Below are positions 5,626 to 53,172 of a stretch of DNA of 64,000 nucleotides, in pieces. A program made the position numbers and the translations under genes. The notes under the pieces are model-generated. The model was not told where the DNA came from and ran no database searches. It saw only the letters and a list, made by a program, of their open reading frames with translations. How positions within the stretch are numbered: the first letter of the stretch is position 1; every line of letters starts with the position of its first letter. Source of the DNA: a virus (lineage: Duplodnaviria; Caudoviricetes); IMG/VR virus record IMGVR_UViG_3300010340_001122. One strand, given 5' to 3'.

Positions 5626-5952
5626 TTATATGGAGAATGATTCACCACAACCACAAACCCTCTTAGAATTTGGATTTATCCACTCAAAACCTTTACCGTT
5701 TAGACCATCGGAGTAGTCTAGTTCTGTTCCAATTAAATATAATAATGATTTTTTATTTGTTGCAATTTTCAAATCAAGATGTTCAAATATTTCATCATCA
5801 TCATTTGATTTGTTTGTCAAGTCCATGTTATATTTCAGCCCAGAGCATCCACCACCAACAACTTCAACTCTTAAAAAATAAGTTGAATCGTAGTTAGATT
5901 CTTTAATAAGGTGTTTGACTTTCTGATATGCTTTTTCAGATAGTGTGATCAT
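5626..5952 (-). CDS. iscA: A-type Fe-S carrier (IscA/HesB family)
   Basis: GGGCSG and C-terminal NPN...CGCGESF. Confidence 0.92.
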   Translation of the reverse strand: MITLSEKAYQKVKHLIKESNYDSTYFLRVEVVGGGCSGLKYNMDLTNKSNDDDEIFEHLDLKIATNKKSLLYLIGTELDYSDGLNGKGFEWINPNSKRVCGCGESFSI

Positions 5953-46372: not shown

Positions 46373-47557
46373 ATGGATAAAGTTTATATACAAAGTATTA
46401 TTCAAAATATATTAGATAAAGAGTTCTCATCACCGATATTTAGAAAAGTAAATACATATGAGGATCGTATAAATATGCGATGCCCATATTGTAAAGAAGG
46501 TCGATCTCAACATAAAAAGAGAGGTAATCTATATTTTAATAAATTATTATTCATCTGTTTTAGATGTGATAAGAAAACTTCTTTTGATAAAATGTCTCGT
46601 GATTTTAATGAGGCTATTGATCCTCAGAAAAAGCTTGAACTAATTGAATATCTAGACTCGGTTGTTGATTATTCAGATTATGATACAGACTTTAATGATT
46701 TTAAAGTCGATGACTTAATCGATATGAAAGACTTAGAAGAATTATTCAATGTTAAAAAGACTACACCTATATTTGATTTTGCACCAGTGAGTGAAAAGAG
46801 TGGAGTTTTTAAATATTTAATAGGAAGGGGAATTCCCAAAGAATTACATAAGAATATTTATCAAGCTAAATTTGCAAAAGGCGATGAGGGATTTGAACAT
46901 GTTATTATATTCTTAAATAGAAGAGGTGATAAAGTGCTAGGTCTTCAAGTTCGTAATCTAAAAGAAGGTCGTAGAAGATTTTTTGTTATTTATAATTGGG
47001 AATCTATCTATAAGTGGATTCATGGTGATGATGTTGAATTAGATATTCAAAAATCGGTTATCTATAACAAACTATCATATTTCTTTAATATATTGAATAT
47101 TGATTTTGAAAATACGATAACTGTTTTTGAGGGGTATTTAGACTCAATATTTTATCCAAACTCTATTGGAATAGTTGGAGTAAATACTGATTTAAGATTC
47201 CTTGAAAATAATAATTTAGAGTTACAATATTTTTTTGATAATGATGATGCTGGTTTTAATAAGTCTGAGGAAAAAATAAAAGAAGGTGGTAAAGTCTTTT
47301 TATGGAAAAAGTTATTTGAAGATATTGTTTCTAAAAAGAAAAGTGGGGATCCACATGAGTTACTTTATCGAATTTCAAAAGTTAAAGATTTAAATAAATT
47401 AAATGAATTGGTTCCAGGTGCTTTTAAAAAATTAAATATTTATAATTTTTTTTCAGAGGATTTATATGATTTGAAATATTTACCTAAAAAATTAAACAAA
47501 AGAAAAACTAAACCTGAAAAAGATTATTTAAAAGAATTTAAAAATCACGACTTTTAA
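46373..47557 (+). CDS. DNA primase (T4 gp61-like)
   Basis: CPYC/CFRC zinc ribbon; TOPRIM VFEGYLDS and FDNDDAG. Confidence 0.85.
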   Translation: MDKVYIQSIIQNILDKEFSSPIFRKVNTYEDRINMRCPYCKEGRSQHKKRGNLYFNKLLFICFRCDKKTSFDKMSRDFNEAIDPQKKLELIEYLDSVVDYSDYDTDFNDFKVDDLIDMKDLEELFNVKKTTPIFDFAPVSEKSGVFKYLIGRGIPKELHKNIYQAKFAKGDEGFEHVIIFLNRRGDKVLGLQVRNLKEGRRRFFVIYNWESIYKWIHGDDVELDIQKSVIYNKLSYFFNILNIDFENTITVFEGYLDSIFYPNSIGIVGVNTDLRFLENNNLELQYFFDNDDAGFNKSEEKIKEGGKVFLWKKLFEDIVSKKKSGDPHELLYRISKVKDLNKLNELVPGAFKKLNIYNFFSEDLYDLKYLPKKLNKRKTKPEKDYLKEFKNHDF

Positions 47558-48027
47558 ATATACGGTACTCTAGTATTTTTATATTTTATATTTTTGATTC
47601 TTAAATAATCTTTAAACTTTAAATCTCCTCTTTCGTTATTACAATCAAAACACACAACAACTAAATTAATTTGACAATTATTACCACCCTTTGATATTGG
47701 TATAATATGATCAGTTGTTGCATTAGATTCTGTTAGATATTTTTCACAATAGATACATTTGGCTTTATCATTATCCTTTAAATATTCTTTAGCAAAACCA
47801 CTTGTTCTCCTTTTAACATTTTTACCATTCCATTTAAGACCAACGACAACAATATTTTCAAGAAATTTATACTTTTTTCTATAAATTACACAAGGAACAT
47901 AATTCTTATTTAATCTAACAAATAATCTTATTACTATTGACCATTTTTCCCAAATTTCTTTATCTACCGATATAAAATGGTGGTCTTTTGACTTTCTAAT
48001 AAACTTGACAACTTCTATAATATTCAT
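47554..48027 (-). CDS. HNH endonuclease
   Basis: CIYC, TDHIIPISKGG, NL...CFDCN. Confidence 0.85.
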   Translation of the reverse strand: MNIIEVVKFIRKSKDHHFISVDKEIWEKWSIVIRLFVRLNKNYVPCVIYRKKYKFLENIVVVGLKWNGKNVKRRTSGFAKEYLKDNDKAKCIYCEKYLTESNATTDHIIPISKGGNNCQINLVVVCFDCNNERGDLKFKDYLRIKNIKYKNTRVPYI

Positions 48028-49704: not shown

Positions 49705-51167
49705 TTAAAATCCGTTGAATATGTCTAAAATAACACTCAATCTTTTAGTTATTTCTGGCATTCCAAGTGGAGTAATAATTGAGTTAATAGGACTTATAAT
49801 TGTTTTGAAAAATTGTAAATCATAATCAACTTCAGGTGCGAATTCAATAGGATATGATCCTCTAATAAATGCAAATATTTCATTTATTTTTTTATTATTA
49901 CAGTGATAATACTTAATTTTTGTTCCGGATTTAATAAATTCATACTTTGATTGTAATTCTTTATTTTGATTTAAAAGAAAATTATAGTAAGCTGCTGATT
50001 TAACCGCAAAGTGAGCACCAGATACAAAACTTAATCTATCTTTATCTTCTAAAACCTTTGTTTCATAGTTAGAGCAAGATGATTGCATTGATATATCATC
50101 AATATCAGCTAATTCAAATTCTTTTCTTAAATTCTTAACCAATTTAAGTAAGTCTTTAATATTAAAATTATCTGGATGTTCAAATAAATATTTAACAATC
50201 TGTATAATTTTCTCTCTTGCAAAAAGTGGTGTTGATGATCTAACAAGTTCAACTCCTTTAGGGAAAATATATGTCAATCTATCGAAGGGAATACCATCTT
50301 CATAAACAATATTTTGTATATATTTCTTTTTAGAAAAATTCAGAATAGATTCAGAAATTCTCTCCAATTCAAAATCCTCTCGATTTTTAACCCCGAAACT
50401 CTCAGCATACTCTTCAAGACAGTTTTTAAAGTATCCACCAAATCTAAATCCATCAATTCCATGAATAAAATCTAATTCATTAAACCAATTCCATCTTATT
50501 ACATTATTTTTTAATAAATCTTGCAATTCAGGAGAATTAAATGATCTATCTTTAACAAAATAACCATCAATAATTAAATGATCTACTTTGTTATTTTTCA
50601 AAAAATCTTTTAATTCATCCGGTTTTTTAAAAATACCTAAACAGTTAATATTGTCGGTTTTGGTTTCTTGTCTATACTCTAATATTACAAATGTTGTATC
50701 TACTTTATCTATATTTTTTAAGAATAGATTTTGCCATTCACAATGTTGAATTGCAGGTTCAAATGATACAAATAATGAATCAGTATCTGCATAAATACTT
50801 ACTTCTTCTCCATTCTTTTTAATAATTGGAGTAACATTTTTCACACCTAATCTGGCATGTAATTCATAATCTATGTGCCAATGAGAATACCAGTATTTCT
50901 CATTTACTGCATGCATAGTTTTTGTTAAATCACGACCCTGTGCAGTAATTGTACCAGCAACGTGTTGGTTAAATAGTATGAAATATTGCGTCGCAAATGC
51001 ACCATACGAACCATTTAATATAAGTTTTAGTCAATACCCCCTCAAATAAATTGAGGGGGTCAAAAAAGAGCGAGCTGTAAGGCATTGTAGTAATCACTTT
51101 CCCTTTTCAACTCGCTGGCTTTATTTTTTAATGACTCAATTTTTTTGAGTTTATCTTCTTTAGTCAA
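49705..51167 (-). CDS. family B DNA polymerase, C-terminal subunit (fingers/palm/thumb), interrupted by a 38-nt coding gap
   Basis: TTG at 51167 gives MTKEDK...NALQLAL, a gap, then KLILNGSYGAF...ITAQGR...YADTDS...KKKY...KGVELVRSSTP; joined product about 474 aa; no motif A or exonuclease domain. Confidence 0.85.
51028..51068 (-). other. 38-nt coding gap (candidate translational bypass element or micro-intron)
   Basis: CUU UUU UGA, 10-bp stem ACCCCCUCAA/UUGAGGGGGU, AU UGA, CUA AAA; CUU-to-CUA distance is 38 nt. Confidence 0.75.
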
Positions 51168-51245
51168 TTTTTTAATTATTTTTTAAATATATCCTTAAAG
51201 GAACATATGTTAATTTTATATATAATAAAATTAATTAGTTTTTAT

Positions 51246-52388
51246 ATGATAAAAGAAAAAAATGTTTTAGTCTCCGTAAATTCAAGAAACATATCACACT
51301 ATAAGTTATTGGGTTATGATATACATATTGGTGGGTTTTCAGATAAAAAACTATTAGAAGTAATTATTAAAGACATTCCAAAAAATTCAACGGTTAGAAT
51401 AACTGCTATTTGTGACTTGTGTAGTTGTGAAAAGTCTATTACACTAGCAAAATATTATAAAAATTTTGAAAGAGGTGGTTATAATTTTTATTCTTGTTTT
51501 GGTTGTAAAAATAAAAAGAAAGAAATGACTAATCTAAAATTGTTTGGTGTAAAGTCTTTTTCCGAAACTGATGTCTTTAAGGAAAAATATAACAAAACTT
51601 GTTTAGAAAAATATGGAGTTAAAAATCCAAATATGTTAAAAGATTTTAGAGAAAAAACTAAAAAAACTTGCTTGGAAAAGTATGGATTTACAAATCCATT
51701 AATGAGACCAGAAATTATAGATTCAAATAGGATATGGATGTCTTCTGATGAATTTAAAAATAAATCCAAATTAACGTTAATAAAAAACTGGGGATTTGAT
51801 TCATACTCAAAAACTGATGAATTTAAAAATAAAATTCAAGAGAATAAAGAAATGATTATTAGTAAAATAAAATCTTCGTTTTTAGAAAAATACGGAGTTG
51901 ATTCTATTTTTAAAACTAAAGATTGGAAAATTAACTTTATGAATAAAATAGATGAAATCCAAAAGAAGAAAAAGGATACTTGTTTAGAAAAATATGGATT
52001 TGAAAATGTTTCTCAAGTCTCTGAAATATATGACAGAATAATTAAAACTAAGATATATAATAATCAAATTATACCTGATTCATTATTATCAGATTGGAAA
52101 ATATATAAAAGAAAAGTTAGGAAAATAACAAACAAGAATAAAAAAACTCTTTATGAAAATTGGAACGGTAATGATTATTATGATGATGAAGTTATAAAGT
52201 CCTATCTTGCATACTCACACACACATAGGTTTTACCCTTGTATAGACCACAAGATTAGTGTTTTTTATGGATTTAATAATAACATAGATCCAGAAATAAT
52301 AGGAGATATTGATAATTTATGTATAACTAAAAGATTTTTGAACTCCATAAAAGGTAGTTTAATTGAAGAGGAGTTTCGAAAATTTTAA
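51246..52388 (+). CDS. freestanding HNH-type homing endonuclease with KTCLEKYG repeats
   Basis: CDLC/C..C; multiple (T)CLEKYG..N repeats; C-terminal IDHKIS..GF......IG...NL......N..KG. Confidence 0.7.
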   Translation: MIKEKNVLVSVNSRNISHYKLLGYDIHIGGFSDKKLLEVIIKDIPKNSTVRITAICDLCSCEKSITLAKYYKNFERGGYNFYSCFGCKNKKKEMTNLKLFGVKSFSETDVFKEKYNKTCLEKYGVKNPNMLKDFREKTKKTCLEKYGFTNPLMRPEIIDSNRIWMSSDEFKNKSKLTLIKNWGFDSYSKTDEFKNKIQENKEMIISKIKSSFLEKYGVDSIFKTKDWKINFMNKIDEIQKKKKDTCLEKYGFENVSQVSEIYDRIIKTKIYNNQIIPDSLLSDWKIYKRKVRKITNKNKKTLYENWNGNDYYDDEVIKSYLAYSHTHRFYPCIDHKISVFYGFNNNIDPEIIGDIDNLCITKRFLNSIKGSLIEEEFRKF

Positions 52389-52389
52389 A

Positions 52390-53172
52390 TTAATCCTCTT
52401 CGTTTGTAAAATCTTGTTCAAAACTAATCATTAAGTGACTTGTTTCATCTTTTGTTAAAATGAATGTATCAAAAACATAAAATTCAATTTTATCAGAATT
52501 ATCATTTATAGATGGGAGAAATGTTTTATTAAACATTAAATGTCTGTCTGTTAAATCCACTTCATCTACTTGAAATTCCCAAGTGGATAATTCAGATAAA
52601 ACAACTTTTTTATCTTCAACATTTAAATGTATTACTTTACCATCTGAATTAATTGATGATAACTTCTTAATATCTTGAAATTCTGATTTATCAATTTTAA
52701 AAGACCATTTACTATTTTTAATATCAACTCTTTTTGATAGAACTCCTTTTGGAATATCTCTAATTTCAGAAGATTCGCCTCCTTGAAGGCCAATTTTTAA
52801 CTTACCATTTTTAATTTGTGTAAAACGAACTATTGAAGAATCATCATCATCATTTTCACGATAATCAATATTCATTACGATTTTATCAGATGATGTTTTA
52901 ATAAATCCAAGATTTTTAACAAATCTTTTAGCACCAGAAATGATCATATCGAGTGTATTTTCTAATTCATCTTTCATTTCAAAATAGTCTTTAGTATCTA
53001 TTAGATAACTTTTAAATGCTAAAAGTATTGTTTCTCCAACAATAGAATACATTAGAATATTTTCCGAATCTATTTTTAATTTAATTGTATCACTTATTTT
53101 AGATAAGTCCTCTAACTTTGTTAGAAAGTCCTCGAATTTATCACGATTTAATTGTATAGTGAGTTTTGACAT
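52390..53172 (-). CDS. putative DNA sliding clamp (gp45-like)
   Basis: About 260 aa, acidic, two-domain alpha/beta pattern, upstream of the polymerase on the same strand. Confidence 0.5.
   Translation of the reverse strand: MSKLTIQLNRDKFEDFLTKLEDLSKISDTIKLKIDSENILMYSIVGETILLAFKSYLIDTKDYFEMKDELENTLDMIISGAKRFVKNLGFIKTSSDKIVMNIDYRENDDDDSSIVRFTQIKNGKLKIGLQGGESSEIRDIPKGVLSKRVDIKNSKWSFKIDKSEFQDIKKLSSINSDGKVIHLNVEDKKVVLSELSTWEFQVDEVDLTDRHLMFNKTFLPSINDNSDKIEFYVFDTFILTKDETSHLMISFEQDFTNEED

Follow-up and report, generated by a model that had tools for sequence, protein, structure and literature searches.

We identified in a 64,000-nucleotide (nt) stretch of phage DNA (IMG/VR record IMGVR_UViG_3300010340_001122, hereafter the window) a freestanding gene for an HNH-type homing endonuclease next to a family B DNA polymerase gene (polB) whose motif B is interrupted by a 38-nt hairpin insert. 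In related large aquatic phages, the HNH gene and the motif B hairpin insert travel together as a mobile cassette, which comprises the nuclease gene, the intergenic region and approximately the first 190 nt of the polymerase gene, including the coding gap. The comparisons described below establish that the two elements are linked and mobile, that the nuclease is intact and that the insert has to be skipped. On balance, we lean cautiously towards regarding the element as a second, evolutionarily independent homing-endonuclease/bypass cassette, seated in polB motif B and represented by 48 gaps at five sites of take-off, along with 37 or more nuclease variants whose DNA-binding parts have been swapped.

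A coding gap in motif B of the polymerase gene

The window has a G+C content of 26% and its nearest DNA relatives are the uncultured huge phages LR745206 and LR756502 (634-642 kb). A minus-strand open reading frame (ORF) at positions 49705-50916 encodes the C-terminal part of a family B DNA polymerase (Pfam DNA_pol_B; PHROG DNA polymerase). Upstream and in frame with this ORF we found motif B ('KLILNGSYGAFATQYF...') without any start codon, the frame being closed by a TGA just before a CTA codon. Another frame, entered at a TTG at 51167, reads (M)TKEDKLKKIESLKNKASELKRESDYYNALQLAL, ends in DYYNALQLAL and continues as TTT TGA. The homologous gene of LR745206 and LR756502 is an uninterrupted ORF of 474 amino acids (aa) that reads ...DYYNA(L/M)QLALKLVLNGSYGAF... 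A three-way DNA alignment placed exactly 38 extra bases in the window at 51028-51065, confirming the size of the insert proposed in an initial annotation of this DNA. The two relatives lack exactly these 38 nt, and their uninterrupted reading across the site is QLALKLVLNGSYG.

The polymerase gene of the window is, in consequence of the insert, read in two parts on the minus strand. The first coding part (51066-51167) has 34 codons, from the TTG at 51167 to the take-off codon CTT at 51066-51068, and is homologous to the N-terminus of the uninterrupted 474-aa genes in L001 and L002 (L numbers label related contigs or loci). The second coding part (49705-51027; 440 codons) resumes after the gap as KLILNGSYGAF... 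and runs to 49705, carrying motif B, motif C (YADTDS) and the thumb domain; it has no start codon before 50916. The gap itself (51028-51065, minus strand) holds a TTT, a TGA stop codon (51060-51062), a perfect 10-bp C5/G5 hairpin (51036-51060; arms ACCCCCUCAA/UUGAGGGGGU) and a spacer, and closes with the landing codon CTA (51028-51030), so that the RNA continues past the hairpin as AUUGA CUA. Folding of a 101-nt stretch around the gap gave -26.7 kcal/mol (z -3.4). No second hairpin of this kind occurs in the 64-kb window (number expected by chance, 0), and Rfam matched no family in positions 50700-51400.

The signatures of selection are those of a working gene. In pairs of gap-bearing sequences, the ratio of nonsynonymous to synonymous substitution rates (dN/dS) was about 0.08 in the first coding part and 0.05-0.18 in the second; purifying selection is, therefore, strong on both. 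Because the ratios are far below 1 on both sides of the gap, the gene must be functional and the insert must be skipped during expression. Thus, the polymerase of these large aquatic phages is intact despite its resemblance to a frameshifted pseudogene.

Other readings of the insert were considered and rejected. A terminator scan found no T tail on either strand of the hairpin, which is, for this reason, not an intrinsic terminator. A -1 frameshift at C-UUU-UUU-G would run into the TGA just before CTA, would require TGA to be read as sense and would place 12 extra residues within motif B. Nor does an alternative genetic code explain the gap, for the other ORFs of the window are normal under translation table 11 and the gaps hold TAA, TAG and TGA in various frames. 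No tRNA genes were found in the window.

An intact HNH nuclease gene beside the gap

The initial annotation had described a freestanding HNH-type gene with CLEKYG repeats about 180 bp from the gap. The gene is indeed intact at 51246-52388 on the plus strand, and its start is separated from the gap by 181 nt (142 nt to an upstream ATG). The longest ORF spans 51207-52388 (plus strand, 393 aa), and alignment with 15 homologues set the true start at M14 ('MIKEKNVL'), at 51246. The resulting 380-aa protein has a zinc-ribbon-like N-terminal region, five repeats of the xxCLEKYGxxN type and a C-terminal HNH domain. The repeats match Pfam DUF7487 with 81.2 bits (cut-off 27; E 1.4e-22), and the protein also matches PHROG 'homing endonuclease' families. 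Pfam HNH models did not match the 380-aa nuclease, a profile search against PDB sequences gave no meaningful match, and Foldseek with the whole elongated model returned nothing significant. We recognized the HNH (beta-beta-alpha-metal) domain (52080-52385, plus strand; residues 279-380) from invariant alignment columns and from VIA-align matches of the AlphaFold model (pLDDT, the predicted local distance difference test score, of 82). The C-terminal domain aligned with the Gme HNH nicking endonuclease (4h9d; Z 8.0 over 85 residues), and further matches were to GVE2 HNH, Cap5, McrA and Cas9 HNH domains (including 5h0o, 7rwk and 6ghc). Residues D334, H335, N357 and N366 are invariant in 16 homologues (alignment A3), within an invariant C-terminal motif, IDHK..S..G....I....NLC(I/V)TKR..NS.K. 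Given the invariance of the catalytic residues and the HNH fold of the model, the nuclease is probably active.

Between the nuclease start and the start of the polymerase C-half lies a divergent intergenic region (51168-51245) that presumably holds promoters and ribosome-binding sites; a promoter scan of this region returned only consensus promoter-like matches. The spacing is similar in the relatives: in all carrier loci with enough flank, the nuclease starts on the opposite strand 105-157 nt upstream of the YYNA codons of the polymerase gene.

Gap variants in related phages

To collect relatives, we searched IMG/VR with the polymerase part, both as a single sequence and as an alignment, and included two GenBank phage records on the basis of DNA similarity, for a total of 43 distinct contigs. 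Gaps were called with a script that located the motif B codons and compared both frames to the uninterrupted sequence YYNALQLALKLVLNGSYGAFAT. The related contigs and a metagenome scan yielded 48 distinct gap sequences of 36-48 nt, which occupy five codon positions within 27 nt of motif B: after A8 (type i), after L9 (type ii, the type of the window), after V12 (type iii), after Y17 (type iv) and after G15 (type v). Their lengths fall into all three classes modulo 3 (20/14/14 of the variants), hence the insert cannot be translated, and any reading that translates it is ruled out.

The variants share a common design. Each gap contains a C-run/G-run hairpin of 9-16 bp (-17 to -31 kcal/mol) that starts at a fixed distance of 5-6 nt past the last coding codon and is followed by a variable, mostly A-rich 3' spacer of 4-10 nt. 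An alignment of 46 variants revealed compensatory double changes in 8 of the 11 pairs of the consensus hairpin. In 37 of the 48 variants, the codon that precedes the gap is synonymous with the codon that ends it (GCT/GCT or GCA, CTT or CTG/CTA, GTT/GTA or GTT, GGT/GGT). The gap of L119, which has Phe rather than Leu at residue 9, has both codons jointly altered (TTT/TTC). A stop codon lies no more than two codons from take-off in 42 variants. Outside motif B, hairpins of the C-run/G-run type are practically absent from the remainder of the window and from related loci that total 1.3 Mb. This speaks for selection on the motif B stretch and against an element that is dispersed at large; on these grounds, we rejected a dispersed mobile hairpin family.

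Could the two coding parts simply yield separate products? The gene might be a decaying pseudogene, or translation might stop at the TGA and restart to give a 35-aa peptide and a protein from motif B onward. The polymerase of this phage group is already encoded in split halves, and the 3' arm of the hairpin is rich in G and looks like a ribosome-binding site placed 5-10 nt before the resumption codon. Yet both coding frames are open in all 48 variants and both are under the strong purifying selection noted above, the resumption point is never a start codon in any variant (CTA, GCT, GTT, GGT, AAC and others), and the interruption is situated midway in the motif B helix. We consider it extremely improbable that the gene is not expressed as one protein.

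Two minor observations concern the hairpins. The gaps of L009 and L010 are identical to that of L008 (positions ~5855-5885) except for one G in the G-run (41 versus 42 nt), either a natural variation in length that is tolerated by skipping or a homopolymer sequencing error. The only other C5/G5 hairpin in the polymerase-neighborhood loci (CCCCCTAAATTTTAGGGGG; L004:10781-10799, corresponding to L007:10892) is located about 50 nt upstream of a homologue of a small HNH gene that is also found in the window (see below).

Association of the nuclease gene with the gap

Co-occurrence of the gap and the HNH gene across related genomes had been set beforehand as a check on the proposed cassette. We searched IMG/VR with the nuclease protein and metagenome contigs with the nuclease alignment, retrieving 80 of the 324 metagenome matches. 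Homologues with 42-94% identity occupied the same place and orientation beside the polymerase gene wherever the flank sufficed. For the comparison of the two traits, we built a polymerase tree from which the motif B columns were excluded, using the 43 contigs and a 44th (L015) that came from the nuclease-protein search. The nuclease gene and the gap were both present in 17 contigs and both absent in 15; 12 had the gap without the nuclease gene and none had the nuclease gene without the gap (Fisher exact test, p 7.9e-5). Both traits are very patchy: the tree requires 15 changes of state for the nuclease and 14 for the gap. Among the approximately 11 phylogenetically independent pairs that differ in the nuclease, the gap differed in the same way in about 7, in the opposite way in none and not at all in about 4 (median p 0.016). 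The association predicted by the initial annotation thus held, and the tree rules out clade-specific vertical inheritance as its cause. In the wider collection, 35 of the 37 distinct intact nuclease proteins that adjoin the polymerase C-half are accompanied by a gap.

More distant nuclease homologues (30-38% identity; L023:3000-4804 and L135-L175) were found in other contexts and not beside the polymerase gene, one of them (L023) next to a DNA methyltransferase-like neighbor. The nuclease family presumably has other targets.

Mobility of the cassette

Close relatives provide snapshots of the gain or loss of the cassette. L032, which has the nuclease gene and a type iv gap, and L036, which has neither, are ~95% identical on both sides of the region and differ by a clean ~870-nt nuclease insertion, the 39-nt gap and an intervening segment in which identity is lower. 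Presence or absence of the nuclease at one site with clean borders is also apparent when L032 is compared with L034 and when L050 is compared with L045. L034 shares both its gap variant and its 5' haplotype with L043 and has no nuclease gene. Recombination breakpoints map just 3' of motif B. From ~60 nt past motif B onwards, L048, which has a type iv gap and no nuclease gene, does not differ from L047 and L049, which have the nuclease gene and a type i gap; upstream of that point, the sequences have diverged or show no relationship. Consistent with such exchanges, synonymous divergence (dS) was 1.6 in the 34-codon first part and 0.75 in the rest of the gene, a difference of about twofold. The cassette region has, in sum, a history different from that of the rest of the gene and near-identical genomes differ by the nuclease and the gap, which bears out the mobility that the initial annotation had proposed.

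The nuclease gene itself appears to be modular. The closest polymerase relative of the window is L132 (83% nt identity), which has a type i gap. The HNH-coding 3' ends of the two nuclease genes are 89% identical at the nucleotide level (window 52088-52382 versus L132:3019-3313), whereas the 5' parts, which encode the DNA-binding region, cannot be aligned. This pattern suggests that the specificity domain was exchanged as a module between nucleases, coinciding with the difference in gap type (ii in the window, i in L132).

The nuclease gene can also be lost from a gap-bearing locus. The L054 locus has retained its type ii gap, upstream of which are the remains of a nuclease gene. These pseudogene fragments (L054:4269-4685) are rearranged, with an N-terminal piece that carries a stop on the expected strand and with the middle and C-terminal pieces inverted.

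Proposed mechanism of immunity and bypass

The best explanation for these results, and in our judgment a probable one, is a homing endonuclease/gap cassette in which motif B is the site of cleavage, the gap confers immunity and ribosomes bypass the insert. We prefer this reading because the pattern equals that described for the T4 MobA/gene 60 element. We infer that the enzyme recognizes uninterrupted motif B DNA, that the insert confers resistance to it and that the ribosome does the skipping. In this scheme, the HNH gene is a freestanding homing endonuclease gene lodged directly upstream of the polymerase C-half. In mixed infections, its product would cut or nick polymerase alleles with an uninterrupted motif B, and repair would copy the cassette from the donor. 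The carrier genome would be protected by the 36-48-nt insert, which would split the recognition sequence. As motif B tolerates no protein change, the insert would have to be skipped during expression, most likely by ribosomal bypassing. The peptidyl-tRNA would leave the codon before the gap (CUU in the window), while the hairpin that begins 5-6 nt downstream and the nearby stop codon would block normal decoding. The ribosome would then slide over the gap and re-pair at the synonymous CUA just before the AAA of motif B to produce the normal 474-aa protein, with a predicted junction peptide of ...QLALKLILNGSYG... Once the cassette is fixed, the nuclease gene could decay and the gap would persist.

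Several observations weigh against this account. The landing codon does not match the take-off codon in 11 of the 48 variants, namely all eight of type iv (take-off TAT; landing AAC, AGC, CAA or TAA) and three of type i. The stop codon is located one codon past take-off in 35 variants rather than immediately after it, as in gene 60, and two variants have no in-frame stop inside the gap. L112 and L148 encode intact nucleases with the catalytic motif beside an uninterrupted motif B (YFNATQQALK... and YYNALQNALK..., respectively), so the gap is not indispensable. Furthermore, 12 of the 29 gap-bearing tree contigs (~40%) carry no nuclease gene. Gap type changes 13 times on the nuclease tree, indicating that no fixed gap position goes with any particular lineage of the nuclease, and the linkage of gap and nuclease, at 140-180 bp, could come from co-conversion alone.

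The mismatched landing codons would not matter if the cassette were real and its 38 nt were removed from the mRNA, as a micro-intron or through a hairpin-guided cut-and-ligate reaction. A gap length free of frame constraint and a conserved, co-varying hairpin would be in keeping with such a process. However, inserts of 36-48 nt are far smaller than self-splicing introns and, as noted, Rfam recognized no family at the gap. The spacing between hairpin and 3' junction varies (4-10 nt), which is hard to fit with a cut measured from the structure, and the synonymous codons in 37 of the 48 variants, the joint change in L119 and the frequent nearby stops play no part in splicing. To our knowledge, no bacterial or phage system splices such inserts from mRNA. 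We regard removal at the RNA level as quite improbable.

Another alternative is linkage without immunity. The nuclease could have its target at the 5' end of the polymerase gene or at its own place of insertion between the genes, and the gap could be an unrelated selfish insert or a dosage regulator that hitch-hikes in the co-conversion tract. Freestanding homing endonucleases drag flanking markers along, and such a scenario would accommodate the nuclease-free gap carriers in the tree, the two nuclease genes without a gap and the loose tie between gap type and nuclease lineage. Hitch-hiking leaves unexplained, however, the five independent insertion positions within 27 nt of invariable DNA, the near-absence of such hairpins from 1.3 Mb of other sequence and the lack of any gap-free tree genome with the nuclease gene. 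Moreover, the pseudogene remnants of L054 identify some nuclease-free gap carriers as former carriers of the nuclease. Hence, we view linkage without immunity as a rather unlikely alternative to the cassette with motif B cleavage, gap immunity and ribosomal bypass.

Comparison with known systems

The closest parallel to the polB cassette is the MobA/gene 60 element of T4 (Bonocora et al., 2011, as cited in bioRxiv 10.1101/2022.08.31.505936). In both, a freestanding HNH-type nuclease gene adjoins a non-coding insert that interrupts a strongly conserved stretch of an essential gene for replication, and the insert follows soon after the start of the downstream gene piece (34 codons here, 46 in gene 60). 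Both also have a stop codon and a stem-loop at take-off and, in most though not all of the polB variants, matched take-off and landing codons. The T4 insert accompanies nearly every nuclease copy, is kept in some genomes without the nuclease and marks a site that was invaded repeatedly in a gene that is functional (Manning & Atkins, bioRxiv 10.1101/2022.08.31.505936). Similarly, the polB insert is present in nearly every nuclease-bearing genome, is kept in some in which the nuclease is lost or a pseudogene, and reflects repeated independent invasions of the same site. T4 itself keeps the gene 60 gap beside a mobA pseudogene (bioRxiv 10.1101/2022.08.31.505936). The same survey calls the gene 60 cassette unique and confined to the topoisomerase gene (bioRxiv 10.1101/2022.08.31.505936).

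The differences from T4 are equally clear. The target here is motif B of a family B polymerase rather than the large subunit of topoisomerase II, and gene 60 has a single 50-nt gap at one position, unlike the 36-48-nt gaps at five positions that we describe. The C5/G5 stem begins 5-6 nt after take-off with the stop usually one codon later, and, in contrast to gene 60, landing codons can be mismatched. The nuclease gene is on the opposite strand, unlike in T4. It was not the cause of the division of the polymerase gene, which is divided at the same codon in relatives that have neither gap nor nuclease; therefore, the split of the polymerase predates the cassette. Unlike T4 Mob proteins, the nuclease has DUF7487 repeats as its DNA-binding part. 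A tblastn search of 50,697 phage records with the 380-aa protein matched 93, none with a T4-type Mob gene; the matches are to proteins of the DUF7487 type, termed 'homing endonuclease' or 'zinc-ribbon', from various phages that include Lak, jumbo and Lactococcus phages. The different target gene, the lack of a tblastn match to T4-type Mob proteins and the different gap architecture support the origin independent of T4 that had been suggested initially, although the nuclease and Mob may be remotely related through the HNH core. Several copies of the nuclease family were noted in Lak megaphages and other jumbo phages.

Other selfish elements share some of these features. Freestanding phage homing endonucleases that have no bypass, such as the Seg and Mob proteins of T4, are the subject of a review (PMC2988022). 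Like the genes for these, the nuclease gene is intergenic beside a conserved gene, is patchy among close relatives and has co-converted flanks. Carriers of Seg and Mob genes are protected by nucleotide substitutions in the target, whereas protection here is apparently provided by a skipped non-coding insert; the gap-free carriers L112 and L148 may follow the classical substitution route. The mitochondrial 'byp' elements of Magnusiomyces, which Lang et al. reportedly described in 2014 as translational jumps of 27-55 nt, are also short, G+C-rich hairpin inserts in an A+T-rich genome that occur in any frame, usually have matching take-off and landing triplets and are skipped in translation. Unlike byps, which are dispersed in many genes and have no endonuclease, the inserts in polB are confined to one 27-nt target and linked to a nuclease. 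Inteins and group I introns in the catalytic motifs of polB are, like the gap, selfish, located in the most conserved codons and removed during expression. Unlike them, an insert of 38 nt has no protein-splicing or ribozyme capacity and its nuclease is encoded outside the insert.

Full-text literature searches returned no report of a gap in polB motif B, and a 2025 paper on large aquatic phages (PMC12619734) makes no mention of one. For efficient long-range bypassing in bacteria and phages, T4 gene 60 is essentially the sole experimental system. A second one of independent origin would have another target gene, nuclease family and RNA design and would bring rich natural variation. It would allow the general features of bypassing (hairpin position, stop placement, codon matching, leader peptide) to be tested, and also the question of whether arms races with homing endonucleases drive the evolution of bypass elements as immunity devices. 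If the proposed mechanism is true, bypassing would be a recurrent way to immunize unchangeable coding DNA against homing endonucleases, and the gap variants would constitute a natural library for the rules of take-off, sliding and landing, including landing at non-matching codons. The findings also bear on genome annotation, where they raise the matter of how often gene callers wrongly report essential phage genes as broken.

Neighboring genes and the architecture of the polymerase locus

The nuclease insertion is bordered upstream by a gene for a sliding clamp (52390-53172, minus strand; 260 aa). The clamp protein matched no Pfam or PHROG family, and we identified it from the matches of its structural model to beta-clamp/PCNA structures (Foldseek probability 1.0; E ~1e-8). 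The clamp and nuclease genes are convergent, with their stop codons 1 nt apart, and the nuclease gene is divergent from the polymerase C-half. Thus, the nuclease gene does lie in opposite orientation between the clamp-like gene and the polymerase, as first described. Clamp orthologues are located upstream of the polymerase C-half in most relatives. The initial annotation had also raised the question of whether gap-free genomes have the clamp adjacent to polB; some do, and in others small genes intervene. One subgroup (L033:4188-4721, also L036, L034 and L032) has a 177-aa ORF (LNKKQPNNKRKHKINDDIKSFEVRLIV...) between the clamp gene and the polymerase C-half, a candidate for translation initiation factor IF-3.

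A second HNH protein is encoded in the window at 47554-48027 (minus strand). It is small (157 aa; Pfam HNH_5, HNH), and most relatives encode a counterpart with 51-74% identity at a distance of a few kb from polB. This conserved presence suggests that the small HNH protein has a fixed function rather than a mobile homing role.

The polymerase C-half is a free-standing gene that starts with TTG in the window and with ATG in the relatives. Searches with Pfam and PHROGs did not find the N-terminal half of the polymerase (exonuclease domain and motif A) in the 64-kb window, and in the relatives it is not adjacent to the C-half either. Some of the relatives carry inteins at motif C of the polymerase (YGD|S...HN|TDS). 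L012 (5788-7713) and L148 (255-2177) have a contiguous mini-intein at this place. In L008 (6001-7811; also in L009 and L010), a first ORF ends in ...RVIIHN* and, after 26 nt, a second ORF begins with MKKENYKLLEIE and continues to ...ILVHN|TDS. Judging from these reading frames, the motif C intein of L008-L010 appears to be naturally split, which would leave the polymerase in at least three pieces. L014 and L016 have larger inserts, of 1.6-2 kb, at the same place in motif C.

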